Under the pieces are notes generated by a model that ran no database searches, was not told where the DNA came from, and saw nothing but the letters and a program-made list of their open reading frames with translations. Shown piece by piece: positions 8,683-40,657 of a stretch of 50,238 nucleotides of DNA (positions are counted from its first letter, which is position 1; each line of letters starts with the position of its first letter). Position numbers and translations under genes: made by a program. Source of the DNA: Patescibacteria group bacterium (GTDB lineage: Bacteria > Patescibacteriota > Patescibacteriia > GWA2-46-9); assembly GCA_041660005.1 (NCBI GenBank), contig JBAZXG010000002.1, positions 188,037-238,274 of the forward strand. Reading direction: 5' to 3'.

Positions 8683-9006
8683 ATGTCTTTTTTTAGAAAA
8701 GCAGGAGCACCAGGAACAATAGGAGCAGATTCGGATCCGAGACATGAAGAACTTGTTGAGGAAATGAGAGTTGTCGCACAGGCACATGAAATATACGAAG
8801 GGCTGGTTGGAACCGGAGAAGTTGGGAATATTATGGAGATTCCTGAAGGCGGTTCCGAGTTAGATGGCGCAATACAAGCTGCCTGGGAAAGGGTTCAAGT
8901 CGAACTGAATGCAAAAGGAATTAAATCGACAGATAAAATCGGCGGAAAATTTCGCGGCGAACTTAATGACGCATGGGGTCTCAAACACGTAGGGGTCGAT
9001 TACTAG
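8683..9006 (+). CDS. Hypothetical protein (107 aa), acidic
   Basis: ORF only; no recognisable motif. It is the first gene of the AT-rich island. Confidence 0.45.
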   Translation: MSFFRKAGAPGTIGADSDPRHEELVEEMRVVAQAHEIYEGLVGTGEVGNIMEIPEGGSELDGAIQAAWERVQVELNAKGIKSTDKIGGKFRGELNDAWGLKHVGVDY

Positions 9007-9113
9007 ATTTTTGGAAATAGGTATTAGATGGTAGGAGTTGGTAACAAGAAAAATAATTTCTGACTTTAGTTTTTAATAGCACGGATATTAGTTCTAAAAA
9101 ACTAGCAGTTGAT

Positions 9114-9704
9114 GTGGTCATTCTTCCTCCGGTTGAGGTAATAGAGAAGTTGATAGATATTAATCGGCAGGCGACGGCAAAAAATGCGGCATGGGGGTCA
9201 TTGGCAAAAGACGACTTTTTGCCACACCTATCACTTGCAATGGGTGGTGTTGAATATGACAATCTCGAAAAGGTAAAAAATGTTATCAAAGACACGATAA
9301 GCGAGTTTGGTGCGATCTCAATAGAGTTAAATGAATTATATTTTGTCGAAAGACCGGATGGCTCGCGAAATTATTGTTTCAGAGTTAAAAACACGTCAGT
9401 TCTCCAGCAGTTGCATGAAAAATTAATGAATAATCTTCGACCATATTTTTCTTATGACTGCACAAAGGATTCACTTTTCTCAAAACCAGGAGAAGAAATT
9501 ATTGTGCCAGACTACCTTAACAAATACCTTTCGTCATACAGTTTTAATGCCTTTGAACCACACATTACCTTAAGAACCAAAGAAGCCGTTGGTCAGGAGT
9601 ATTTGCCAATCAAATTTATTGCAAATAAAGTCGCAGTTTTCCACGCCGGAGTAATGACTACCTGTAGAAAAGAATTTTTTGCAGTAGAGCTGGCGAGGTC
9701 TTAA
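9114..9704 (+). CDS. 2H phosphoesterase superfamily protein (LigT / cyclic-phosphodiesterase-like)
   Basis: Two H-x-S/T-x motifs at the expected spacing: PHLSLA (about aa 37) and PHITLR (about aa 150). GTG start. Confidence 0.65.
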   Translation: MVILPPVEVIEKLIDINRQATAKNAAWGSLAKDDFLPHLSLAMGGVEYDNLEKVKNVIKDTISEFGAISIELNELYFVERPDGSRNYCFRVKNTSVLQQLHEKLMNNLRPYFSYDCTKDSLFSKPGEEIIVPDYLNKYLSSYSFNAFEPHITLRTKEAVGQEYLPIKFIANKVAVFHAGVMTTCRKEFFAVELARS

Positions 9705-9734
9705 GATTTAACGAAGTAGGTTTTTAAATTTTTT

Positions 9735-10415
9735 ATGGAAAGAGAAACTTTCATTCATCCAAGCGGCAAGCGAGAATCAGAAGTAGATATTAATGAAGTG
9801 CGCGGGCTGGGGAGCGGTACATTCGGCTGGGTTCGCGAAGCTGTCGTAAGTAAAGGCAACGTCAAACGTACTATGGCTTTGAAGCATTTTTTTAAAGGTC
9901 GAGAACAAGCTCAAAGCGCTTTTGATAATTATAAGTTAGCAAAAAAAGCTGGCTTAAAAGTTTTTACCACATATCGTATCAGCAAAGAAGGGGACGCTAT
10001 TTTAATGACAAACGGAAATGATAAGGAAACTGTTTGTTTGTCCCTCAGTCCGAAGGAAGATAGACCAAAAGCATTGGACGGCGAGTCTATTGAAAAAATA
10101 GAAAATTTTGATGAACTATTGCAAAACTTATATCAAGAGGCAGAAAAAGCAACGAAGAATGGGCTTTATTTCAATGGTGATGAAATCTTCTTCCTCGTCG
10201 ATAAAAAAACAAAAACAAAGGTAAGTTTTGTTTTGGGAGATATGGACGGTATATCAGTAGACCCTATGAGATTTGAGGGTGTACCATATGACAATATCGC
10301 CGAAGTTGGGGCATCAGTTGTCGTGTTTTTAGATAAATATATGTCACCCGAAGTGAGCGAGGCTTACGCTCAAAAAGTACGAGAATTCTTTTCCCACAAA
10401 AAACAAAGCGCTTGA
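9735..10415 (+). CDS. Minimal protein-kinase-like fold protein (226 aa, atypical)
   Basis: Gly-rich loop GLGSGTFGWV, VAIK-type lysine (TMALKHF), and a DFG-like LGDMDG. No canonical HRD loop (NGDEIFFLVD sits in its place). Confidence 0.4.
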   Translation: MERETFIHPSGKRESEVDINEVRGLGSGTFGWVREAVVSKGNVKRTMALKHFFKGREQAQSAFDNYKLAKKAGLKVFTTYRISKEGDAILMTNGNDKETVCLSLSPKEDRPKALDGESIEKIENFDELLQNLYQEAEKATKNGLYFNGDEIFFLVDKKTKTKVSFVLGDMDGISVDPMRFEGVPYDNIAEVGASVVVFLDKYMSPEVSEAYAQKVREFFSHKKQSA

Positions 10416-10578
10416 AACTTTCAAGCATTTGTTACCGACGCCGATCCTAGGGGTTTGTTTAAGGCGTATAACGTACAGCTTACAGCTTTGATGGTTTGTA
10501 TCGTATCCAGAAAGGTGTATTCGTATTAAAATATATTAGCCGGAAGTGCGACCGAATGGTTATTTAATGGGGTAAGTT

Positions 10579-11586
10579 ATGACAAAAAAAGATTTTAAAA
10601 AAGGCGAAATAATAATTTACAAAAATCCTCAAAATGAGGTGGACTTGAGCGTAAAGCTGGATCAAGAAACGGTCTGGCTTTCTTTGGATCAAATGGCACT
10701 ATTATTTGACCGTGATAAATCGGTCATCTCCCGTCATATTAAAAATGTTTTCCAAGAAAATGAGCTTAAACAAGGTTCAGTTGTTGCAAATTTTGCAACA
10801 ACTGCCGTCGACGGAAAAACTTACCAAGTAGATTATTACAATTTAGATGTTATTATTTCCGTTGGTTATCGGGTGAAATCGCAAAACGGTGTCAAATTTA
10901 GAATTTGGGCTAGCAGAGTCCTGAAACAATATCTTACTAAAGGTTACACTATTAACGAGAAGAGACTTTTGGAAGCAAAAAATAAGTTTTACGAACTTCA
11001 AGAAGCGATTAGTTTTCTTAAAAAACAGTCCCAGAAAGAATTGTTGAGCGGACAGGAAACGGAAATTTTGAATTTACTGGCAGATTACTCAAAGACACTT
11101 TCTTTGCTCGACCAATATGACAAAAATAAACTAGGAGTTCAAAAAGGTAGAAAATCAAAGTTCGTTTTGCCGTATGAAGATTGTGTAAAAATTGTCGTCG
11201 AATTAAAAAAAGAACTTATCGCCAAAAAAGAAGCCGGTGATTTATTTGGGCAGGAGCGAGGTGGATGTTTTGAAGGAATTGTCAGGGGGCTTTACCAGAC
11301 GTTTGCCAAGAAAGAATTGTATCCAACCATCGAAGATAAAGCAGCTCATTTGTTCTATCTCACTATCAAAGATCATCCATTTTCTGATGGCAACAAAAGA
11401 ACCGCTGCATTTTTGTTTGTCTATTTTCTAGATAAGTCCGAATATCTTTTCAAAAAATCAGGTGAGCGGAAAATCAACGATAACGCTTTGACCGCGCTTG
11501 CACTATTAGTTGCCGTAAGTGATCCAAAAGATAAAGAAACGATGATTAAAATTGTTAAGAACTTAATTACCGAAGACGAAAAGTAA
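10579..11586 (+). CDS. RhuM-family N-terminal domain fused to a Fic/Doc domain
   Basis: The N-terminal ~130 aa (..LDQMALLFDRDKSVISRHIKNVF...YNLDVIISVGYRVKS..GVKFRIWA) are RhuM-like. The C-terminus carries the Fic/Doc motif HPFSDGNKRTAAF. Confidence 0.75.
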   Translation: MTKKDFKKGEIIIYKNPQNEVDLSVKLDQETVWLSLDQMALLFDRDKSVISRHIKNVFQENELKQGSVVANFATTAVDGKTYQVDYYNLDVIISVGYRVKSQNGVKFRIWASRVLKQYLTKGYTINEKRLLEAKNKFYELQEAISFLKKQSQKELLSGQETEILNLLADYSKTLSLLDQYDKNKLGVQKGRKSKFVLPYEDCVKIVVELKKELIAKKEAGDLFGQERGGCFEGIVRGLYQTFAKKELYPTIEDKAAHLFYLTIKDHPFSDGNKRTAAFLFVYFLDKSEYLFKKSGERKINDNALTALALLVAVSDPKDKETMIKIVKNLITEDEK

Positions 11587-11812
11587 TTTCCACAACATTT
11601 TGCGGTTTGTATAGTAACTAAAAGGGCGTATATTATAACCAGAACACGTTGGGCAGGAACGAGTTAAGTGAAGTATTCCTTTTTTTACGGGTTGTCATCC
11701 ATTGTTTGTTTTAATTATAGAGGGGGTATAAGGTGTTTTCTCCGTTCCGCCCCAAAAAGGATTTATTTATTAGGGGAAATTAAGTCCAATAACAATAAAT
11801 TGATTTGATCAT

Positions 11813-12754
11813 ATGGTAGAAGTCTCAAAAAAGTACAGAAAAAAACTCGATGAGATGAAACTACTTTTAGAAGCCATCAACTTTGATAACAGACAAAATA
11901 CTGACTTAACGGGCTGGTCAGTTTTGGCTTTACAAGATCACAACCCACAACAAACCAAGGCGGGATTTAACTCTCTGGCTGAGGGGGCAAGTATTAGAGA
12001 TATTTTGGACTTTTGTAGAGCTTGTGGGACAAATTACGCAGAGAATACTCGAGAAAGCTTACGAAAATTAAGCATAAAATATTTGGTAGATGCAGGTATC
12101 GTCGTCAGAAATCACGACAATCCAGGAAGACCAACAAATTCAGCAAAAACAAATTACATTCTAAACCAGGAGATTTTGAAAATCTTAGTGACAAAGGGTA
12201 AAGAAAAAACCAGATTGATAAATGCGTGGAAAAAGAAGTATTCTGCTGATACGAAAACTGACAACTGGAGACGAGATAAATCACTAAAAGTAACTTTTTC
12301 TGGATTCCATTATCAAATACACCCTTCTCCGCATAACTACCTATCAAAAATAGCGGTAGAAAAATTTTTGCCTGCGATCGAAGAACAATTTGAAATACTG
12401 TACTTCTCAGACACAGACGATAAATCTTTACATATAGCAGCCTCTTTAAAAAAATTTTTAGGCACGGGTTTTGATGTACATAAACATATGCCAGATGTTG
12501 TAGCGTACGGCTTAAAGTCTAAAACCTTATTTTTCATTGAATCTATTGCCTCAGCTGGCGAAATAAATGATCTGCGCAAAAAAGAACTTGATGAGTTATT
12601 TCCAGTTCAAAATGGAACAAAAAGACGCTATATTAGCGTCTTTTTGGACAGAAAGATATTTCGCAAATTTAGTGAAACCGTTTCAAATGGCACTGAAGCA
12701 TGGATAGCCAATAAAGTGCCTCACATTATTTCATTCCGGCCACTCAAGACATAA
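11813..12754 (+). CDS. Type II restriction endonuclease, BsuBI/PstI family (tentative)
   Basis: The C-terminal half (..HNYLSKIAVEKFLPAI..FEILYFSDTDDKSL....MPDVVAY....LFFIESIASAGEI...RKKEL) follows my recollection of the BsuBI/PstI catalytic domain. It is convergent with, and overlaps, an N6-adenine MTase. Confidence 0.6.
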   Translation: MVEVSKKYRKKLDEMKLLLEAINFDNRQNTDLTGWSVLALQDHNPQQTKAGFNSLAEGASIRDILDFCRACGTNYAENTRESLRKLSIKYLVDAGIVVRNHDNPGRPTNSAKTNYILNQEILKILVTKGKEKTRLINAWKKKYSADTKTDNWRRDKSLKVTFSGFHYQIHPSPHNYLSKIAVEKFLPAIEEQFEILYFSDTDDKSLHIAASLKKFLGTGFDVHKHMPDVVAYGLKSKTLFFIESIASAGEINDLRKKELDELFPVQNGTKRRYISVFLDRKIFRKFSETVSNGTEAWIANKVPHIISFRPLKT

Positions 12755-14301
12755 TTTGATTCATCTGGCGTTAAGCCATAAGCAGCATTGATAGCTTTTT
12801 CTAAGTGCTCATTATCTACTTCGTTTTTTGCAGCGTCCTTCAAAAAGTCAACATCATGAGGAATAGGGAAAATTCTAATTTCTTTAGCAGAAACTTGAGT
12901 ATTTCCATTTATAAGTCGAAATAAACGATCCCATAAGGCACTGTTTAACAAAATTTGTAGAATCTCAAGAGATGGAGCTTGTTCATGTTCTCGTTTGATA
13001 AAGTTTAAGTGGTTTTCCAAAAAATAACCTTGAGCATCCCCCGGAATTAATGCCCCCTCCAATCTTCGATTCTGTTCCTTAGTACTAATACGCTTGAATG
13101 CTAAAACTGGCTCACGCAATTTTTCAGTTTCAATTTCTTTGCAGTCGATCACCAAGTGTTGTCTGCCTTTCTGTTTTTTATTTGGCTCAAATTTACGCGC
13201 GGTTATATTGTGCGACCAATAAATTGGCCGGTGGTTTTTTTTATCATCTTCTGTCAAATATTCTTTCATCCTATAGGGTACTATTTGACCAGTGGAAACA
13301 CGCAAGCCAGCATGAGCAATTTTTTTAAACCCATTCTTAAAGCATTTGTTGACAAGTTGCATGTCAAACTTATTTGAGGGGATACAAATTATATCTTCCC
13401 AAAAAACAGTACTATATGGTGACTTAAATGTGCTTATCTCAAATTTCCCGTTCGTAAATGCCACACCCACCCTCACATCTTTTTTAGTCGGCTCTGAATT
13501 CTGAATAGTTAGCAAAACTTGTTCCTGCAACACATCTGGAAAAGTCCCCTTTCTTTCATAGAGAGTTATTATTTCTCCAGTGGAGACCTGTTCTGCTAAA
13601 ATTTGCCTTAATTTTGAAAAGTATGCGCCAGAAACAAAACTTTTAGGAATTATATAACCTAAACTTCCGCCCTTTTTTAACAAATTAATACCGGCCTCAA
13701 CAAAAGACGCGTATAAATTTGGATGACCAAGATTCTGTTTTGGAGAAGCCCTTAAATATGGTGGATTACCAAGAATACAGTCAAATTCATACTTTTTGGA
13801 AAATAGTCCATCTATACTTTCCAAGGAATTCTTACACTTAATATTGAAATCTGTATCTAAAGTTATTTTATAACCGTTTTTCGCAAGATAACCTCTAATA
13901 TTTGCTAAAGAAATCCTAATTAGAACCGGATCAATGTCAAATCCAAAAATTTTATTTTGTATGTCCTGTAAATCTGTGTGCGAATTTACTAACTTTTCGG
14001 TTACTGCAAGCAAGAACCTACCACTCCCGCAAGATATGTCAGCTACAGTATGTAATTTTTTATAGCGGGTACTTTTTATCAAATAGTCAACAATGCTCTT
14101 TGGCGTAAAAAATTGTCCATATTTAGATTTATGTTGCTTTGGTGCATTTTTTTCATAAAAACTTCCAAGCCCGTCCCAATCGTTTATATCAAAAGGCAAT
14201 TCCAAAATTTTCTTTGCACCAATAACATCACATGCCGCTTCAAACGACTCGCATAACTTGTCCCAATATTTAATATCATTGTTTGGCATTGGAAAATTCA
14301 T
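12721..14301 (-). CDS. N6-adenine DNA methyltransferase (gamma class, Eco57I/TaqI-like)
   Basis: GQFFTPKSIV, motif I ADISCGSGRFLL, motif IV ILGNPPYLRA. Start set at ATG 14301 (alternative 14289). The 3' end overlaps the REase gene by 34 nt. Confidence 0.85.
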   Translation of the reverse strand: MNFPMPNNDIKYWDKLCESFEAACDVIGAKKILELPFDINDWDGLGSFYEKNAPKQHKSKYGQFFTPKSIVDYLIKSTRYKKLHTVADISCGSGRFLLAVTEKLVNSHTDLQDIQNKIFGFDIDPVLIRISLANIRGYLAKNGYKITLDTDFNIKCKNSLESIDGLFSKKYEFDCILGNPPYLRASPKQNLGHPNLYASFVEAGINLLKKGGSLGYIIPKSFVSGAYFSKLRQILAEQVSTGEIITLYERKGTFPDVLQEQVLLTIQNSEPTKKDVRVGVAFTNGKFEISTFKSPYSTVFWEDIICIPSNKFDMQLVNKCFKNGFKKIAHAGLRVSTGQIVPYRMKEYLTEDDKKNHRPIYWSHNITARKFEPNKKQKGRQHLVIDCKEIETEKLREPVLAFKRISTKEQNRRLEGALIPGDAQGYFLENHLNFIKREHEQAPSLEILQILLNSALWDRLFRLINGNTQVSAKEIRIFPIPHDVDFLKDAAKNEVDNEHLEKAINAAYGLTPDESNYVLSGRNEIM

Positions 14302-14890
14302 AAGAATATATACCCCTAACAACACCCTCAATTCTAAAATCCTTACTTGCAACAAACGGTTCGTATTTGGAATTGAGCGAAGTCAGAATAATTTGCTTCC
14401 CCTTTTGAATTTTTTTAATCAAAGCTTCACCATCGTTTATACACAAAACTATACTTGCACTCTCGGCGTCATTTGCTCTGCGTACAATAACTAAGTCTTT
14501 GTCATTTATCTTTGGCGACATCGAATCCCCTTTTGCCTTTACCATAAAAGCTTCTTCAGAAGAAAATCCAAGTATTTTTGAAGCTATAGGCACTCTTTCA
14601 ATCGGACTGTCGTCTAGAATCGACCCTTTTGGTCCACAATGAGCAAGGCCATACATATTGAGGTATGTGATTTTCTTTTCGGGTTCATCTGCCAAAATTT
14701 GATAGTCTTGTGTATTAACTGGGTTGCGCCTCAAATAGCCCTTTTTTTCTAACTGTTGAATGTGGTGGTATACAAGACTCGGCGAAGAAAGACTCAACTT
14801 TTCCTGCATCTCACGAATTGTCAAAGGATCTTCTATATTAATTTTTAGAAGCTCCAATAACTTTTTTTGTGCTGGATGAAGTTTATCCAT
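14276..14890 (-). CDS. LexA-like repressor (winged-helix plus S24 autopeptidase)
   Basis: N-terminal wHTH (PLTIREMQEKLSLSSPSLVYHHIQQLEKKGYL), a cleavage-site-like GLAHCGPKG, the Ser nucleophile in KGDSMSP, and the Lys in LIKKIQ. ATG 14890 is preferred over TTG 14902. Confidence 0.75.
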   Translation of the reverse strand: MDKLHPAQKKLLELLKINIEDPLTIREMQEKLSLSSPSLVYHHIQQLEKKGYLRRNPVNTQDYQILADEPEKKITYLNMYGLAHCGPKGSILDDSPIERVPIASKILGFSSEEAFMVKAKGDSMSPKINDKDLVIVRRANDAESASIVLCINDGEALIKKIQKGKQIILTSLNSKYEPFVASKDFRIEGVVRGIYSYEFSNAKQ

Positions 14891-14911
14891 AAGCTTGTTC
14901 AACTTAACTTG

Positions 14912-14940
14912 AGTATAACCTGTGGATAGAATGAAGTCAA
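14912..14940 (-). promoter_or_regulatory. Sigma-70-like promoter for the lexA-like/MTase operon
   Basis: On the minus strand: TTGACT (14940-14935), 17-nt spacer, TATACT (14917-14912). Two direct TGTTCT repeats lie at 14954-14959 and 14966-14971, just upstream. Confidence 0.5.
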
Positions 14941-15284
14941 GAAGGTATTGACTTGTTCTATTATCTGTTCTACATTTGTATCGTTATCCAATAATTCCAA
15001 AAAAATGAGCAACTATCACGTTACCTAAAATAAAGATTCCAGCGTGTAGCAAGCCAAACGAGTTAGGGTTGAACGCGCAGGCGGACTCTACAACACTCAA
15101 GCCAAAGCCGAAAAAGCTACAAAAGGCTTTGTAGCAAATAACGGTAGAGGTGAAGTAAGAATTCACAGACAAAGCGGCCCGATTCGTGACAGCGATACTG
15201 TTGCGCCAGGAAGTGAGCCATACCAACCTAGGGACACTAAGTAATAATTCGTCACTTAGTTTTTAATTCTTAATTTTTAACCAT

Positions 15285-15656
15285 ATGGCAGATAAAAAAA
15301 CGATCTTTGTTGCTTTTGCAATTGAAGATGAGAGGCAAAGGGACTTTCTTAAAGGACAGTCCCTAAATACAGATTCACCATTCGAGTACGTAGATATGTC
15401 GGTTAAAGAACCATATGACTCCGACTGGAAAGAGCGCGTTCGCACGCGTATCCGCCGTTCCGATGGAGTCATTGCTCTTATAAGCAGAAATTCTCTTAGC
15501 TCAAGTGGTCAAAAGTGGGAAATCGAGTGTGCTCGGGAAGAAAAGAAAAAGATTTTAGGAATTTGGGTATACAAAGATGACCGAACTAATCTAGTCGGAG
15601 TAAATACAGTAGTGTGGACATGGGAAGCGATTAAAAATTTCATAAACAATCTGTAA
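15285..15656 (+). CDS. Stand-alone TIR-like domain protein (ThsB / DUF1863 type)
   Basis: [12 protein letters not shown]...[58 protein letters not shown] follows the DUF1863/ThsB TIR pattern, including the S..W.[IE]E catalytic-Glu context. Confidence 0.7.
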
Positions 15657-15657
15657 T

Positions 15658-16632
15658 ATGAGAAAAGCACTGATTGTAGGTATCGACTATTATGATTCAG
15701 CCAGCCAGTTATACGGCTGCGCCGAAGATGCACGCTCGGTTAAAGCTGTTTTAGAACGTCACGACGACGGTTCTGTGAACTTTGGCTGTAAGTTACTCAC
15801 AGGAACAAGCGATAAGGAACGAGTTAATCGAGGCGATCTCAAAGACAGCATTGAAGAATTATTTAAAAGTGATTCTGAGATAGTATTGGTTTATTTTGCT
15901 GGGCATGGTCACATCGAAGCGACAGGGGGATATTTAATCGCAACTGATTCTAAACGCGGAGATGAGGGAGTCGCTTTATCTGAAATATTGACTTTCGCTA
16001 ATCAATCACCAGCAGCTAATAAAATTATCATTCTAGATAGCTGTCATTCTGGTATTACGGGGGATAGCTCTGTAAATGGAAATCTGGCAGCTTTATCCGA
16101 AGGGTTAACAGTCCTAACCGCATCCACAAAAGATCAGTACGCAACAGAAGAAAATGGCAGAGGTGTATTCACAACATTGCTAGTTGATGCGCTCAATGGT
16201 AGTGCGGCCAACCTCACTGGCGATATTACACCCGGTAGCGTATATGCACACATTGACCAATCACTAGGCGAATGGGAACAGCGACCTGTTTTCAAAACAA
16301 ATGTAAAACAGTTTGTTTCCTTACGGAAGGTAGCGCAACCAATATCCCTTGGGGATTTACGTCGCATTACGGAATTTTTCTCCTCACCCGGATACGAGTT
16401 TCAACTTGATCCAACTTTTGAACCAGAAATGAAGGGGCGAGACGAAGGAATGCCAAAGCCAAATCCTAAAAATACAGAAAAATTTTCGGTACTTCAACAG
16501 TATAACAGGCTAAACTTGCTTACTCCTATAGGTGCATCTCATATGTGGCATGCAGCAATGGGAAGCAAATCATGCAGACTAACCGTATTAGGAGAACACT
16601 ATAGAAGACTTATAGAGAAAAATAGAATTTAG
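15658..16632 (+). CDS. Caspase-fold (peptidase C14) protease with an unknown C-terminal domain
   Basis: ALIVGIDYY..., catalytic His in VYFAGHGH and Cys in [10 protein letters not shown]. The last ~110-130 aa have no recognisable motif. The ATG is 1 nt after the TIR gene stop. Confidence 0.8.
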
Positions 16633-17086
16633 TGTTTGAAGTTGGTGTAATTCATCCCTCTTGGCCCCCTGTCTGCTATCCAAAATGGAAAAAGAAAGTT
16701 GAAATTTTTTTGGGATAATCCCATAGGATCGGCGTAGGTAATGACAAACGTAGAGAACCGGAAGAATGGTCGTGCTGTTTGACCCGCCTACATCTGAAGA
16801 AGTATGGCGGGGAGTTCACGGCCATCGCTTCTCGGAGTGCAGTCATGCCCCAGCCGAGTCCTTTGGGTGTCATTTTCTCGTTAGTCTTTTGGACAAGCAA
16901 AAGAGTAACAAATAGTCGCGAGGGCGTAGCCCGAGGACGTTATGATTTCTAATTTGTAATTGAAACAAAGAAATAGACAAACTACAGCCCCGTCAAACGG
17001 GACGAGGTTTATTGAGCGACAGACTCAAAGCCGCTCGTTGTCCGCGTGGACAAACCACTCTCCCCACGTTAAGATAGCTACTACTT

Positions 17087-35993: not shown

Positions 35994-36890
35994 CGTCCCC
36001 GCAGTATTCTTTTCAACTTTTTTCGCTGGTTGTTTTCAGAGTGGCGTTTCTTAACCTAGGTAAGAACCGCCCCTCTGGATGTAACGGCACGCAACTTAAC
36101 AAGTTCATAACATGAGCAAGCAAACATGAAGAAGAAGCATCATGTAACCTACATCTTGCAATGTAAGTAAAACTCGATGCTGACCAACGTCAGTACCGAG
36201 GCAAATAAGGGTAGACGGTGGATGCCTTGACACTAAAAGACGATGAAGGACGTGGCTACCGACGAAACGCTTCGGGGAGGTGGTGAGCAACCTTTGATCC
36301 GAGGATGTCCGAATGGGGAAACCCAGTTCGAGTAATATCGAATTATTGTGCGCTGAATACATAGGCGTATGAAGTTAACCCGGGGAACTGAAACATCTTA
36401 GTACCCGGTGGAAAAGAAAATAATTGCGAACTATTTTTTAGCTTTCAGCTTGCGGTTATCAGTGGTTGACCATACGACTTCGGTCGCGGTTGTGCTGCTG
36501 GTAGTTGCTTGCTGATAGCTACGAATACGTTCGTGCATTCCCTCAGTAGCGGCGAGCGAAAGGGGAATAGCCCAAACCTTAGCAGGTTGTGTGAAAGTGA
36601 CTGCCCCGCAAGGGGTGGAAATTTAAACGTAAAGGCTGCAGGGCCAATGCCCGCTAAGGGGTAGTAAAAGAGTAACGTCAGTGTTCCTGTATTGCACTGG
36701 GTAGCGGAATCAGCACACGCTGTATAATTTTTAGGAGAAGGTCCCTGGAATGGGCCACCAGAGAAGGTGATAGTCCTGTACTCGAAAAAAATTATAACGC
36801 TACGGTTATTTATTTTGAGTACCACGAGACTCGAGAAATCTTGTGGGAAACAGGGTCGACTACGATCCAAGGCTAAATACTTTTAGTGAT

Positions 36891-36927
<37 letters not shown>

Positions 36928-38463
36928 CACCCCGATGAGGGGAATGAAATAGTATCTGAAACCGTCTACTTACAGAGAGTCGGAGCCCCGACGTTACGTC
37001 GGGGTGACGGCATGCCTATTGAAGAATGAGCCAACGAGTTTGTTTCTATCGCTCGTCTAAGCCCACGTAGGGCGGAGGCATAGTGAAAGCGAGCGTTAAT
37101 AGCGCGAATTTCATACTTCAGTTATGTGGTTGTCCCGATGTAATGTCGGGATTGCCGCTGACTGCAGTATGAACCAGCGGTAGGAACAAGACCCGAAGCC
37201 GGGTGATCTAGCCATGGCCAGGATGAACGTTGCCGAAAGGCAACGGGAGGTCCGAACCCACGCGCCGTACAACACGCGGGGATGAGCTGTGGTTAGCGGT
37301 GAAATTCCAATCGAACTCGGCGATAGCTGGTTCTCCTCGAAATAGCTTTAGGGCTAGCGCTACAGTGACACTCAGGGGTAGAGCACTGAATGAGAGGCGG
37401 TGGAGCAATCCTACGACTTTCAACCAAACTCCGAATACTGAGATCGTTATACTGTGGTAGTCAGACTATGGGGGCTAAGCTCCATCAGTCAAAAGGGAAA
37501 CAGCCCAGACCGGCAAATAAGGTCCCAAAATCTCTTCGTACCTGCGGGTACGGAGCCCGGATTTTTGGCATATGCCAAAGAACGGGGGATTAAGTGTAAA
37601 AGGTGGTGAGATGATTGAAACAACCAGGAGGTTTGCTTAGAAGCAGCCATCCTTTAAAGAAAGCGTAACAGCTCACTGGTCAAATCGTCTTGCGCCGAAA
37701 ATATACCGGGGCTTAAATCCAGTACCGAATTTCCGGATCTTTCTGATTTATCAGAGAGATGGTAGAGGAGCGTTCTGAACTGCGTTGAAGGGAGACCCGT
37801 GAGGGATCCTGGAGCGTTCAGAAGTGAGAATGTTGGCATAAGTAGCATAAAGACGGGTGAGAACCCCGTCCACCGTAAGCCTAAGGGTTCCTGGGCAACG
37901 ACAATCGACCCAGGGTTAGTCGGTCCTAAGGCGAGGCCGAAAGGCGTAGTCGATGGATGAGCAGGTTAATATTCCTGCACTTGCTTCCGCGTAGAGCGTT
38001 GTGCGCTTTCCTCAGGTTTCCGCGTTTTTTGGCTATAAACGTGCCGCAAGGCGTAGACAAAGCCGCAAGGTGGAGTCAATGGAGACGTAGGGGGAGTCTA
38101 GAAAAGCAACGTATCAATCCGATGTAATGTTGGAATGGCGGAGGTAAACCGTACTGCAAACCGACACAGGTAGGCGAGGAGAGCATCCTCAGGTGTACGA
38201 GAGAACCCTCGTTCAGGAACTCGGCAAAACAGCGACCGTAACTTCGGAATAAGGTCCGCCCCGACGCAAGTCGGGGTCACAGCAAAAGATCTCAAGCGAC
38301 TGTTTACCAAAAACACAGGTCCCTGCGAAAGCGAAAGCTTATGTATAGGGGCCGATGCCTGGCCAGTGTCAGAACGTTAAGGGGATGGGTCATATCCTTC
38401 GGGATGGCAGCCTTGAACCGAAGCGCTGACGAACGCCGGCGATAACTATAATCGTCCTAAGGT

Positions 38464-38810
38464 TGAATGCTGCCTTAGTGAGGTGTAAGCCCTCCTCTGA
38501 ACTTCGTATGCCGCGAAGAGGTAAGAGAAAATTTGGCCAAATGCTGGAATATCTGATGAATCTGACACTACTAAGGAAACTTTTTTAAGTTACCAAGTGA
38601 CAATGTGATCAGTGCAGACAATCAGCAGGAAAGATCCCGATATTATATCGGGGAATCCTCAGAGACTAAACGCCAGATCCGCCAGTTGGCGGAAAGATAT
38701 AGTCCGAACTGCATGGCGACATGCAGAGACGAACAGAAATGATTTGTCCGCGTAACGATTGGCTATTCGCTATTTGCGATTTGCCAGTTTGTTGCGAAGC
38801 AACAGACTAG
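38464..38810 (+). mobile_element. ORF-less group I intron in 23S (after CCUAAGGU, about E. coli position 1931)
   Basis: The exon junction restores GGTCCTAAGGT|AGCGAAATTCC. The 5' exon ends in U, and the IGS gccttag (38472-38478) pairs with ctaaggt with a U.G at the splice site. The intron ends in G. Its core is shared with the second intron. Confidence 0.85.
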
Positions 38811-38863
<53 letters not shown>

Positions 38864-39351
38864 GAGAACTGTCTTAACGAGGGACTCGGCGAAATTGCAA
38901 GAGGGGTAAAGATGCCCTTGACCCGTAGCTGGACGAAAAGACCCCGTGAAGCTTTACTATAGCTTGCTATTGAGTTGGGAATACGCCTGTTCAGAATAGG
39001 TGGGAGCCGCAAGGCGACAGTGAGATACCACCCTTGTGTATTTACAACCCTAACCCTGTGCCATGAATCTGGCGCGGGGGACAGTAGCTGGTGGGTAGTT
39101 TAACTGGGGCGGTTGCCTCCTAAACAGTAACGGAGGCGTTTACAAAGGTTGGCTAGTCCCGGATGGAAATCGGGACGATAGGGCAAAGCCATAAGCCAGC
39201 TTTACTGCAACTCCTACAAGAGAAGCAGTTGCGAAAGCAGAACTTAGTGATCCGACGATCCAATGTAGGATGGTCGAAGCTCAACGGATAAAAGCTACTC
39301 CGGGGATAACAGGCTAGTCAGGCCCAAGCGTCCACAGCGACGGCCTGGTTC

Positions 39352-39384
<33 letters not shown>

Positions 39385-39418
39385 GTGGAGAAGCTCCCAA
39401 GGGTTTGGCTGTTCGCCA

Positions 39419-39462
<44 letters not shown>

Positions 39463-40209
39463 AAGACCTTGCTGTCTATAAATTCGGCTATATGCTGGAA
39501 ACCCTGACAGAACCTCAAACAGGAGTAGAGGTTCGAAGAATCTCACACTACGTGTTATAATATTACTATTATGATACGTGACAATGTGATGAGTGCAGGC
39601 AATCAGCAGGGAAGGTTATCGAAAGGTCCTAATCCGTGGTATGTATCAGGGTTCGTTGATGGTGAAGGGAGTTTCCATGTAGCGGTTTACAGAGATAGAA
39701 GAATGAAAACCGGCTGGAAGATTATTCCTGAATTTCATGTGTCACAACATGAATCAAGTCGATATGTGCTCGATGAGCTCATTTACTTTTTTCAATGTGG
39801 CTATGTGAAAGCTAACCATCGAGAGAAACCAAGTGACGTAACCGTCGTTTACGTTGTTCGTAATCGAAATGATCTAACAACAAAAATCATCCCGTTTTTT
39901 TCTGAGTACCCGCTGCGAACCGAAAAAAATAAAGATTTTCAGAGGTTCGCAAGAGTTCTGGATTTAATGAACAAAAACGCCCATAGAAATGGTGTGGGGA
40001 TGAAAAAAATTGTGAAGATTGCTTACGAAATGAATAAAAACGGTCGTTACAGAAAGAGACCACTAAAGGAAATTCGATAAAACCCTCAGAGACTATACGC
40101 CGAATCCGCCAGTAGGCGGAAAGATATAGTCCGAACTGCATGGCGACATGCAGATCTCGACGGAAACGCTCGAGACATTTCATTATTTAATGAAGTAGTA
40201 ACAAAGTTG
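39463..40209 (+). mobile_element. Group I intron in the 23S peptidyl-transferase region, carrying a LAGLIDADG ORF
   Basis: The junction restores GTGAGACAGT|TCGGTCTCCTATC. The IGS gctgtct (39471-39477) pairs with agacagt with a terminal U.G. The intron ends in G (40209). Confidence 0.85.
39571..40080 (+). CDS. LAGLIDADG homing endonuclease (single-motif type)
   Basis: [16 protein letters not shown] is the LAGLIDADG motif. The ~165-aa size fits the homodimeric type. The ORF lies inside the intron. Confidence 0.9.
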
Positions 40210-40550: not shown

Positions 40551-40657
40551 CCTGGTGCTTCTTGCGGCGGGGGTACACCTGTTCCCATCCCGAACACAGC
40601 AGTTAAGCCCGCCAGCGCCGATGATACTCGAAAGGGGAAAGTAGGTCGGCGCCAGGA
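40551..40657 (+). rRNA. rrf: 5S rRNA
   Basis: CCTGGTG....CCCATCCCGAACACAGCAGTTAAGC...GCCGATGATACT...GGGAAAGTAGGTCGGCGCCAGG. It is flanked by the inverted repeat gtgagctccacagt / actgtggagctcac and then TTTTTATTTT. Confidence 0.95.

Follow-up and report, generated by a model that had tools for sequence, protein, structure and literature searches.

A probable, horizontally acquired type IV Thoeris system in a defence island of an Uhrbacteria-like CPR bacterium

In a 50,238-nucleotide stretch of DNA from a Patescibacteria group bacterium (contig JBAZXG010000002.1 of assembly GCA_041660005.1; hereafter the window), a gene for a stand-alone TIR-like protein is followed at once by a gene for a caspase-fold protease. 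The initial annotation proposed that the two genes form a TIR-to-caspase defence module, and asked whether they represent a variant of Thoeris or a separate lineage. Type IV Thoeris has been published (bioRxiv 10.1101/2024.10.24.620036, Rousset et al.; cited as Science 387:510, 2025); it has been characterised both genetically and biochemically, and dedicated models now detect such loci. Its Pseudomonas sp. 1-7 representatives PsTIR and PsCaspase are named ThsB and ThsE by Yirmiya et al., and these names are used here for the two genes in the window.

Both genes lie on the forward strand. The first, thsB (15285-15656), encodes a 123-aa stand-alone TIR-domain protein, the putative signal synthase, and the second, thsE (15658-16632), encodes a 324-aa protein. 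The TAA stop codon of thsB (15654-15656) is separated by a single T (15657) from the ATG of thsE at 15658. The coordinates, lengths and 1-nt gap first claimed for these open reading frames match the sequence exactly, and the motifs quoted alongside them were all found: KWEIE, which contains Glu79 of the TIR protein, and AGHGH and DSCHSG, which contain His83 and Cys129 of the protease. The two genes are full length, with neither a frameshift nor an internal stop, and their products have the modal lengths of their families and keep all family-invariant residues.

The TIR protein scored above the Pfam gathering scores of both ThsB_TIR (PF08937; 37.2 bits against 21.2, E = 3.9e-9) and TIR_2 (PF13676; 29.5 bits against 28). 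It aligns with PsTIR over its whole length without gaps, with 87 of 123 residues identical (71%) and E79 falling on E79, and in an alignment of 18 family members it retains every one of the 38 invariant columns. Identity to EcTIR amounts to 31 of 137 alignment columns. PsTIR itself is at most 76% identical to the TIR protein of any locus compared, none of which is the Pseudomonas sp. 1-7 system. A PDB sequence search with the window TIR protein gave no match. PADLOC 2.0.0 returned weak ThsB matches (best E = 1.7e-5); this release is older than type IV Thoeris and has no model for it, so the result neither supports nor contradicts membership.

Residues 1-213 of ThsE (15658-16296, forward strand) form the protease domain, which matched Peptidase_C14 (PF00656) at 61.6 bits (gathering score 21.4, E = 1.2e-16) and the generic PADLOC 'caspase' model (E = 3e-18). 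His83 and Cys129 were invariant among 35 homologues. An AlphaFold2 (AF2) model of the protein had a confident core, and its best Foldseek matches were MALT1 paracaspase (E = 1.6e-8), caspase-1/-11 and metacaspases, all caspase folds with sequence identities of only 13-21% to ThsE. The C14 caspase fold with an intact His/Cys dyad, as originally described, is thus upheld by the profile match, by the residues themselves and by the model. A PDB sequence search with ThsE retrieved metacaspases only, with no type IV Thoeris effector structure among the matches.

Comparison with PsCaspase spans just the first nine residues, of which eight are identical (MRKALIVGI in the window, MRKALVVGI in PsCaspase). 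Cys129 carries the same number as the PsCaspase cysteine changed in the C129A mutant, and it has been reported that PsTIR E79Q and PsCaspase C129A each abolish defence (10.1101/2024.10.24.620036). Over residues 1-324, the window caspase shares 69% identity with its counterpart in a Nomurabacteria genome listed in Table S1 of the type IV study (locus L065). It is 75% identical to the product of a Shewanella baltica plasmid gene that itself lies 3' of a 123-aa gene annotated as TIR domain-containing, and plasmid-borne copies from Rhodopseudomonas BAL398 and Sphingomonas paucimobilis match it at 58-59%. One strain each of Rhodopseudomonas BAL398 and S. paucimobilis appears in the same table (10.1101/2024.10.24.620036). 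For the putative membership of the effector in the PsCaspase family, from which the type IV study derived its caspase profile, the proxies used were the nine N-terminal residues, Cys129 and the relatives in Table S1, and all of them were positive.

The C-terminal part of ThsE (residues ~222-324; 16321-16632, including the TAG stop at 16630-16632, forward strand) had been noted as resembling nothing recognisable, and this impression held: its last ~100-110 residues had no match in Pfam, NCBIfam or PADLOC, and no significant match to a solved structure was obtained. It is nevertheless a conserved domain. Its mean column identity among 17 homologues was 83%, equal to the conservation of the protease domain, and H295, M296, W297 and the GEHYRRL stretch from G312 to L318 were invariant. 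Among 440 cluster representatives, the domain occurred only as the C-terminus of proteins of ~310-366 aa or of apparent fragments, and no fusion to another effector type was found. When modelled alone it gave a confident AF2 prediction (pLDDT 89.8, pTM 0.80), and a search of solved structures returned weak winged-helix-like matches (best E = 0.066, TM ~0.45-0.5). These matches, to MarR/PadR and ribosomal proteins, are non-significant and we make no fold claim. Rousset et al. put forward a sensor role for the C-terminal domain of the effector as a hypothesis (10.1101/2024.10.24.620036), and by analogy the domain encoded here may serve in N7-cADPR sensing and dimerisation.

The family to which the pair belongs is both widespread and uniform. 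Caspases 67-89% identical to the window copy were found across 255 species genomes, and at the species level an adjacent TIR-domain gene was present at all 80 caspase loci examined: 68 were detected by tblastn with the window TIR sequence, 10 have a TIR gene of the EcTIR type and two have a TIR_2 gene directly downstream, with the TIR calls confirmed by Pfam at representative loci. Adjacency without exception in 80 loci greatly exceeds what chance would give. The caspases paired with the EcTIR type are 67-77% identical to the window caspase; EcTIR-derived metabolites activate PsCaspase, which would explain how one caspase family can be paired with two TIR types. Mean column identity across the effector family is 83-85%, C-terminal domain included. 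With this degree of protein identity (67-89%) extending from an archaeon to CPR bacteria, type IV Thoeris is strongly conserved and mobile. A search of a phage collection yielded just two matches, both distant, and a phage-borne location of the system here is unsupported.

The MacSyFinder rule of Rousset et al. calls the system where at most one gene intervenes between a caspase-like gene and a TIR gene matched by PF08937 or PF13676; in the window, the profiles score above their gathering thresholds and a single nucleotide separates the two genes, which share a strand. Two of the checks proposed at the outset, profile searches with the TIR models and PF00656 and a survey of co-occurrence, thus came out in favour of the original reading. 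The question of lineage is settled by the 71% identity to PsTIR, E79, C129 and the effector architecture: judged by sequence, the pair is a copy of the published system, correctly recognised, and not a separate lineage. Homology to type IV Thoeris likewise favours the functional interpretation first given, of a TIR signal generator and a caspase-fold effector with a presumed C-terminal sensor in a defence island. The implied novelty did not survive, since the system had already been published and Table S1 records it in genomes of Candidatus Nomurabacteria and Parcubacteria (10.1101/2024.10.24.620036), so that its CPR setting is not new either; no experimental work on a CPR copy was found in the type IV Thoeris literature examined. 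We consider it very probable that the pair is an intact type IV Thoeris system of the Pseudomonas sp. 1-7 subtype, acquired horizontally by an Uhrbacteria-like CPR bacterium and placed in a defence island, with a mechanism assigned through homology.

The assignment of the host comes from the isoleucyl-tRNA synthetase (IleRS) encoded in the window, whose closest named relatives are from Candidatus Uhrbacteria (~65-66% identity), followed by Patescibacteria group, Magasanikbacteria and Falkowbacteria sequences (46-50%); a CPR host nearest to Uhrbacteria is accordingly supported as the probable source. The window also contains a 23S rRNA gene with a group I intron and no adjoining 16S gene, and a contig identical to that of the window is present in SRR18595301. 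For the thsB-thsE pair, identities reach 89-95% with homologues from metagenome-assembled genomes labelled Pseudomonadota, Gammaproteobacteria and Peribacteria, as against at most 66% for the adjacent IleRS. Together with an intermediate GC content, this points to a horizontal origin of the pair.

That GC content bears on the description of the pair as lying in an AT-rich island beside a restriction-modification (R-M) system and a Fic gene. The island (8900-14902) has a GC content of 36.5%, compared with 40.3% for the TIR gene, 42.2% for the caspase gene and ~46-48% for the flanking genome. The intermediate values place the pair at the edge of the island rather than within it, whereas the neighbours were correctly named. 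They include a RhuM+Fic protein identified by Pfam and a type II R-M system, which we regard as context outside the Thoeris locus, with a BsuBI/PstI-type endonuclease on the forward strand (11813-12754; PF06616, PF17728; PADLOC REase_II, 3e-50) and an Eco57I/N6-type methylase on the reverse strand (12721-14355; PF07669, PF02384; PADLOC MTase_II, 2.8e-69). No credible match was obtained when the 454-nt gap 3' of thsE was scanned permissively against Rfam. The interest of the locus in this respect is one of annotation: a small-genome, Uhrbacteria-like CPR bacterium appears to carry an intact, horizontally acquired abortive-infection system adjoining R-M and RhuM-Fic genes.

Upstream of thsB are two further genes whose relation to the pair has to be considered. 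The more distal, on the reverse strand (14276-14902), encodes a LexA-like repressor with a winged-helix DNA-binding domain and an S24 self-cleaving peptidase domain, matched above cut-offs by LexA_DNA_bind (PF01726, E = 3e-12) and Peptidase_S24 (PF00717, E = 2e-21). Residues equivalent to G85, S119 and K156 of E. coli LexA are invariant, with Cys-Gly as the scissile pair. With its winged helix, Ser/Lys dyad and Ala/Cys-Gly site, the product has the features of a LexA/S24 protein and is predicted to cleave itself. A copy 87% identical occupies the same position in a related locus (L004). Directly 5' of thsB, on the forward strand, lies a DUF2188 pseudogene (15005-15244) with in-frame stops at 15026-15028 (TAA) and 15047-15049 (TAG). 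With the stops masked it scored 41.6 bits against PF09954 (cut-off 22), and the stretch is 88% identical to an intact 80-aa gene in L004, from which both stops differ by single-base changes (AAA to TAA and TGG to TAG); the intact protein matched the PADLOC candidate PDC-S16 (E = 3.5e-19). Over this stretch the window has an exact counterpart in a second assembly (L005; 100% identity). An alternative genetic code was rejected as the source of the stops, given these single-base changes and the other examined open reading frames, which are intact under table 11.

The LexA-like gene is divergent from DUF2188-thsB-thsE, and the intergenic region contains a candidate promoter facing these genes (14948-14976, forward strand; TTGACT, 17 nt, TACATT). 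Its spacer holds a direct repeat, GTTC-N8-GTTC (14955-14970), which occurs once in the 50-kb window, is kept in L004 and is a candidate operator; no inverted-repeat operator was found in the LexA-like/DUF2188 intergenic region of the window. In the closest clade to the window, the pair is likewise headed by a LexA-like gene and DUF2188, and at other loci this head stands before CBASS, another Thoeris system and R-M systems. One tentative interpretation is that, in CPR bacteria and others not yet cultivated, a LexA-like S24 repressor, usually followed by DUF2188, would form a portable DNA-damage head over type IV Thoeris, CBASS, other Thoeris and R-M cargo, with the window representing a LexA-gated copy that recently lost DUF2188, and the repressor acting as a one-polypeptide analogue of CapH/CapP. 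If this were so, signalling-based immunity would gain an SOS-type input through a recurring head with interchangeable cargo behind it, and DUF2188, an uncharacterised family, would have a context in which its function could be tested.

The competing explanation, to which we give an even chance, is that neither the LexA-like gene nor DUF2188 is functionally connected to the pair, the LexA-like protein being a host SOS repressor or R-M controller alongside which defence genes accumulated. In keeping with this, most LexA-like relatives (50-75% identity) have no TIR-caspase pair nearby, ~75 more distant TIR-caspase loci have no LexA-like gene, and in both the window and L004 the LexA-like gene lies on the strand opposite to thsB-thsE, its end overlapping the methylase gene; shared ancestry of one island could also account for the pattern within the LexA-like sub-clade. 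Several observations nevertheless pull the other way. Two LexA-like subtypes, ~30% identical to each other, stand beside the same pair in two orientations, and in the tandem form the LexA-like, DUF2188, TIR and caspase genes are ~2-5 nt apart, which suggests one transcript. These four genes remain together while the R-M partner differs each time, the head also stands before CBASS and another Thoeris system, and the arrangement resembles the CapH/CapP-plus-DUF2188 operons of Lau et al. (10.1101/2022.04.27.489752). A narrower proposal, that the LexA-like gene and DUF2188 are dedicated type IV accessories, was discarded on account of the many LexA-like relatives lacking a TIR-caspase pair and of the other cargo of the head.

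The loss of DUF2188 raises a second alternative, in which the pair is a true type IV Thoeris system by descent that has become a silent or decaying passenger, the nonsense mutations marking erosion or causing polarity. DUF2188 does lie between the predicted promoter and thsB with two nonsense mutations relative to L004, a promoter scan of the region gave no more sites than expected from shuffled sequence, and no Shine-Dalgarno-like sequence is obvious 5' of thsB or thsE. However, both genes of the pair are intact and retain all family-invariant residues, the catalytic ones included, and four relatives without DUF2188 (L006, L087, L091 and L007) keep intact pairs, so DUF2188 seems dispensable for persistence of the pair. 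We therefore regard this alternative as unlikely.

If the pair is instead an active type IV system, as we favour, the following course of events may be proposed. Phage infection would activate the 123-aa TIR protein, whose Glu79 would convert NAD+ to the cyclic signal N7-cADPR. This molecule would bind the effector, probably in a pocket between the conserved C-terminal domains of an effector dimer, and would thereby switch on the His83/Cys129 caspase-fold protease, which would cut many cellular proteins after arginine, EF-Tu included. Growth of the infected cell would stop and no phage progeny would be released, as in abortive infection. The nature of the signal, the specificity of the protease, the part played by the C-terminal domain and the activity of the pair in its CPR host are all inferred by analogy with the characterised systems.

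A variant of this scheme would keep the type IV logic with different chemistry, using a signal other than N7-cADPR or a protease with another specificity or target. TIR products do vary among Thoeris types, 29% of the TIR residues differ from PsTIR, and the sensor function is a hypothesis for a domain whose fold has no informative solved homologue. Against this, EcTIR, divergent as it is, still yields a molecule able to activate PsCaspase, which makes it improbable that the signal has changed among Ps-type TIR proteins that are 71% identical, and the exceptional conservation of the effector (67-89% across phyla) argues for a single ligand and mechanism; we rate this variant as quite improbable. 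The notion that thsE is the caspase of another conflict system (EACC1-associated, type III CRISPR SAVED-CHAT/PCaspase or gasdermin-activating) with an incidental TIR neighbour draws on its best NCBIfam match, 'caspase, EACC1-associated type' (NF047832, E = 5.9e-29), but is scarcely credible, as this match (101.1 bits) falls short of the 140 bits set as cut-off and is confined to the generic protease domain (residues 3-203), the neighbourhood has no gene for EACC1, SAVED, CRISPR or gasdermin components, and the universal TIR adjacency and 71% PsTIR identity effectively refute it.

Among known systems, the type IV locus of Pseudomonas sp. 1-7 is the most direct point of reference. It shares with the window the gene order, tight coupling, a 123-aa TIR protein, the E79 and C129 numbering and a defence-island setting, as well as an effector architecture of caspase plus a C-terminal domain with no assigned function. 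The two differ in their junction, which is an overlapping TGATG in Pseudomonas and TAAtATG (1 nt) in the window, in their hosts (a pseudomonad and a CPR bacterium) and in the LexA-like gene and DUF2188 pseudogene upstream in the window. E. coli 328 (EcTIR and EcCaspase) also carries type IV Thoeris, but EcTIR is of another ThsB subtype with an 'LFISHSW' N-terminus. Type I and II Thoeris have in common with the window a ThsB-type TIR protein and, by analogy, an NAD-derived signal, a separately encoded effector and abortive infection. Their effectors, however, a SIR2-SLOG ThsA or a Macro-domain protein, act as NADases or membrane pores rather than as a protease, their sensors are SLOG or Macro domains, neither of which corresponds to the C-terminal domain of ThsE, and their signals are 3'cADPR or His-ADPR, as opposed to N7-cADPR in type IV; no SIR2, SLOG or Macro domain was found by Pfam or PADLOC in the open reading frames examined between 10579 and 16632.

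The caspase fold with its His/Cys dyad is shared with MALT1, metacaspases and the type III CRISPR PCaspase. MALT1 has arginine specificity, and activation in this group proceeds by scaffold-induced dimerisation or proteolytic processing, whereas the type IV effector responds to a small-molecule second messenger; the C-terminal domain of ThsE is also unrelated to the Ig3 domain of MALT1. Arginine-directed, promiscuous cleavage is common to the type IV protease and PCaspase (10.1101/2024.10.24.620036). For the upstream genes, the closest parallel is the CapH/CapP module of CBASS, a cleavable HTH repressor system that heads variable defence operons, often with DUF2188, and for which derepression on DNA damage has been proposed (10.1101/2022.04.27.489752). 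CapH/CapP consists of a separate HTH protein and metallopeptidase, whereas the head in the window has a single S24 LexA-like polypeptide predicted to cleave itself, and LexA-like heads of this kind are oriented either divergently from or in tandem with their cargo.

The initial annotation described two adjoining plus-strand ORFs 1 nt apart, and this is exact in the sequence, in coordinates and lengths: thsB (15285-15656), encoding a 123-aa TIR protein, and thsE (15658-16632), encoding a 324-aa protein with a C14 caspase domain and a C-terminal domain, are separated by a single T between the TAA of the former and the ATG of the latter. Pfam analysis bore out both domain calls, with scores above the gathering thresholds for the thsB protein (ThsB_TIR, PF08937, 37.2 bits, E = 3.9e-9; TIR_2, PF13676, 29.5 bits) and the thsE protein (Peptidase_C14, PF00656, 61.6 bits, E = 1.2e-16, residues 1-213). 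PADLOC returned weak ThsB matches for the thsB protein and a 'caspase' match for the thsE protein (3e-18), while the EACC1-type caspase domain model of NCBIfam gave the latter 101 bits, below its cut-off of 140. The motifs quoted for the catalytic Glu and the His/Cys dyad are present, and place the catalytic residues at Glu79 of the TIR and at His83 and Cys129 of the caspase.

The pairing of a TIR with a caspase is published as type IV Thoeris (Rousset et al., 10.1101/2024.10.24.620036): the cloned systems of Pseudomonas sp. 1-7 and E. coli 328 defend against phage T6, the E79Q substitution in the Pseudomonas TIR (PsTIR) and C129A in its caspase (PsCaspase) abolish defence, the TIR product N7-cADPR activates a promiscuous protease, and the activated protease needs arginine at P1 and has EF-Tu and many other proteins as substrates. 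When PsTIR, obtained by translating the cloned DNA in Table S2 of that study, was aligned with the window TIR, the two proteins, both of 123 aa, were identical at 87/123 positions (71%) without gaps, and Glu79 aligned with Glu79. Over the first nine residues compared, the window caspase reads MRKALIVGI and PsCaspase MRKALVVGI, and the catalytic Cys is numbered 129 in both. In contrast, the TIR of E. coli 328 (EcTIR) belongs to another ThsB subtype and agrees with the window TIR in 31 of 137 alignment columns. Judged by its sequence, the pair is an ordinary, intact type IV Thoeris member of the Pseudomonas sp. 1-7 subtype, and its original interpretation as a TIR-caspase defence module was right.

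Relatives of the caspase are widespread. The best 120 of 7,903 matches are nearly all exactly 324 aa long and 75-89% identical, and come from metagenome-assembled genomes labelled Pseudomonadota, Nitrospira, Zixiibacteriota and others. With one genome per species, 255 genomes encode a relative; the best 80 of these are 67-88% identical to the window caspase and include the CPR lineages Peribacteria, Moraniibacteriota and Nomurabacteria, as well as Bacteroidota, Cyanobacteria, Bacilli, Clostridia, Planctomycetota and one archaeon. Adjoining genes annotated as 'TIR domain-containing protein' and 'caspase family protein' also occur on plasmids of E. coli, Shewanella baltica, Plesiomonas and Providencia. 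The 80 species-level loci were searched by tblastn with the window TIR, and representatives called by eye were confirmed by Pfam. A relative of the window TIR was found in 68 of them, almost always a few nt upstream on the same strand, while 10 of the remaining 12 carry an EcTIR-type gene directly upstream of the caspase gene and the last two a TIR_2 gene directly downstream. Therefore, all 80 loci fall within the adjacency rule of Rousset et al., and the co-occurrence of the two genes extends across genomes. One caspase family with two TIR types agrees with the report that EcTIR metabolites activate PsCaspase (Rousset et al., 10.1101/2024.10.24.620036).

Across these loci (L006-L085), conservation of the ThsE family is very strong for a mobile defence gene, with a length of almost always exactly 324 aa, and identities of 67-88% across an archaeon, Cyanobacteria, Firmicutes, Bacteroidota and CPR bacteria point to strong whole-protein constraint together with frequent horizontal transfer. 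The operon is more complex at some loci: two tandem ThsB-type TIR genes precede the caspase gene in L061 (1212-3030), and in L077 (1024-4972) the genes ahead of it encode a ThsB-like TIR, a protein of 168 aa without a Pfam match, a TIR_2 protein and an uncharacterised protein of 426 aa.

The C-terminal part of ThsE had been described as resembling nothing known, and its last ~100-110 residues indeed have no match in the Pfam, PADLOC and NCBIfam profile libraries. In an alignment of 35 sequences, this region is conserved equally with the protease domain, with H295, M296, W297 and all positions from G312 to L318 among those that never vary. An AlphaFold2 model of the whole effector was confident in the caspase core and residues ~228-324, but not in the loops at 131-144 and 182-225. 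Its best structural matches were the MALT1 paracaspase (E = 1.6e-8), caspase-1/-11, metacaspases and the Geobacter protein GSU0716, and no Thoeris effector was among the PDB structure matches listed. Modelled alone, the C-terminal domain has a confident fold (pLDDT 89.8, pTM 0.80) that gave only non-significant winged-helix-like matches to solved structures (best E = 0.066). Among 1.84 billion cluster representatives searched with a sensitive method, 440 proteins carry this domain, always at the C-terminus of proteins of ~310-366 aa or in apparent fragments, and it is therefore apparently specific to the type IV effector. The expectation in the initial annotation that this region could be a sensor matches the published hypothesis that it binds the signal within an effector dimer (Rousset et al., 10.1101/2024.10.24.620036).

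Given the strength of this homology, the published type IV Thoeris mechanism is the best explanation for the window pair. Phage infection would activate the TIR, whose Glu79 chemistry would convert NAD+ into N7-cADPR; this signal would bind the effector, probably via the C-terminal domains of the dimer, and the His83/Cys129 protease would then cut many proteins after arginine, such that the infected cell would no longer support phage replication. In a later study, phages escaped either by means of a sponge protein that sequesters N7-cADPR or by mutating a capsid vertex protein (PMC13243611), and the latter route points to what type IV Thoeris senses.

Among named relatives, the IleRS encoded beside the pair is closest to that of Candidatus Uhrbacteria (65%), followed by those of Patescibacteria group, Magasanikbacteria and Falkowbacteria (46-50%). 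The 23S rRNA gene (36195-39521, plus strand) is interrupted by a group I intron (38454-38726), the 5S gene lies at 40551-40657, and no 16S gene adjoins the 23S gene in the window. Intron-split 23S genes lacking an adjoining 16S gene are common in CPR genomes. Together, the IleRS matches and the 23S gene identify the host as a CPR bacterium, as originally proposed. Horizontal gain of the pair is the simplest reading, because its identities to copies in other lineages (caspase up to 89%, TIR up to 95%) far exceed those between IleRS and its relatives (at most 66%), and because its GC content (40-42%) is higher than in the R-M/Fic island (36.5%) but lower than in the flanking genome (~46-48%). 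As far as detection goes, the CPR setting has precedents: several genomes of Candidatus Nomurabacteria and Parcubacteria already appear as carriers of type IV Thoeris in Table S1 of Rousset et al. (10.1101/2024.10.24.620036), including that of our Nomurabacteria locus L065. The system is thus already known and named, and its detection in CPR genomes is not new.

The R-M system and Fic gene reported as neighbours are present as a BsuBI/PstI-type endonuclease (11813-12754), an Eco57I-type methylase (12721-14355, minus strand) and a RhuM-Fic fusion protein (10579-11586, plus strand), and a LexA-like S24 repressor (14276-14902, minus strand) was additionally found. With its very strong match to PDC-S23 (E = 8e-126), a candidate defence family of PADLOC, the fusion protein is a second candidate defence gene within the AT-rich island. 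Near the start of this island lies a gene for a 2H-phosphoesterase-like protein of the 2'-5' RNA ligase superfamily (9114-9704, plus strand; 27.9 bits, cut-off 27) featuring HLSL and HITL motifs, followed by a gene for a 226-aa protein with no Pfam match (9735-10415, plus strand). Some 2H phosphoesterases degrade cyclic nucleotide signals, and the place of this gene in a defence island is possibly of interest. Rfam matches in the 454-nt non-coding gap between thsE and the IleRS gene (16633-17086) were not credible (best E = 0.58), nor was a T-box leader seen ahead of the IleRS gene.

Directly upstream of thsB is a DUF2188 reading frame (15005-15244, plus strand; PF09954, 41.6 bits with stops masked), which is interrupted by TAA at 15026-15028 and TAG at 15047-15049; intact DUF2188 matches the PADLOC candidate family PDC-S16. 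The contig of the closest relative (L004, caspase 89% identical) encodes a LexA-like protein on the minus strand, an intact 80-aa DUF2188 protein, a TIR and a caspase, and shares 88% nucleotide identity with the window along these genes. Compared with L004, each stop is a single-base change (AAA to TAA, TGG to TAG), and the window sequence recurs with 100% identity over 4,091 nt spanning the region in an independent assembly (L005), so the DUF2188 gene is a recent pseudogene. The LexA-like proteins retain the cleavage-site Gly and the Ser/Lys dyad, with Cys-Gly as the scissile pair. In both the window and L004, a promoter-like site (14948-14976, plus strand; TTGACT, 17 nt, TACATT) faces the DUF2188-TIR-caspase genes. 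Its spacer holds a direct repeat, GTTCTATTATCTGTTC (GTTC-N8-GTTC), which occurs nowhere else in the 50-kb window and is kept in L004, making it a candidate operator of the LexA-like protein. Peribacteria-type loci instead feature, at the start of their LexA-like gene, the palindrome CCATAC-N5-GTATGG in L006 and an imperfect version of it in L008.

Eleven distinct arrangements were found in the window's sub-clade, defined by caspases at least 80% identical; a LexA-like gene adjoins in nine, DUF2188 in seven and an R-M system in ten, its type different each time. The LexA-like gene is either divergent, as in the window, or in tandem with DUF2188, TIR and caspase genes across gaps of only ~2-5 nt, and the LexA-like proteins of the two forms are only ~30% identical. 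Most relatives fetched with the LexA-like protein have no TIR-caspase pair nearby. At loci with DUF2188 behind the LexA-like gene, the cargo varies: it can be a CBASS operon encoding a SAVED-HNH effector (E = 4e-144) and a cyclase (E = 6e-70), another kind of ThsB (E = 5e-73) paired with PDC-M50A, a gene for a trypsin-like PDC-S45 protein with a BglII/MT-A70 R-M system, or Dcm-type R-M systems. A LexA-like S24 repressor gene, usually with a small DUF2188 gene behind it, recurs beside type IV Thoeris or one of these other cargoes in the window (14276-15244) and at L004, L006, L008, L086-L093, L116, L123, L129, L135, L153, L155 and L158.

Our reading of these gene orders is that LexA-like and DUF2188 genes may form a modular head in front of interchangeable defence cargo, and that the window Thoeris follows a head of this kind. 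About equally likely is a trivial alternative, in which the LexA-like protein is a housekeeping LexA or controls an R-M system and its gene lies beside an insertion hotspot. A dedicated Thoeris accessory was rejected, given the varied cargo and the many LexA-like relatives without a TIR-caspase pair. A modular head could possibly confer SOS-type control on its cargo, and it is the only element of the window locus with some potential for novelty. A DUF2188 protein has been listed as an untested putative Thoeris effector (Yirmiya et al.), and DUF2188 occurs in operons headed by the DNA-damage-responsive repressor-protease pair CapH/CapP (Lau et al., 10.1101/2022.04.27.489752, who credit Burroughs & Aravind (2020) with linking it to defence). 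The window-type head is similar to that of these CapH/CapP-plus-DUF2188 operons, but its repressor and protease are one polypeptide.
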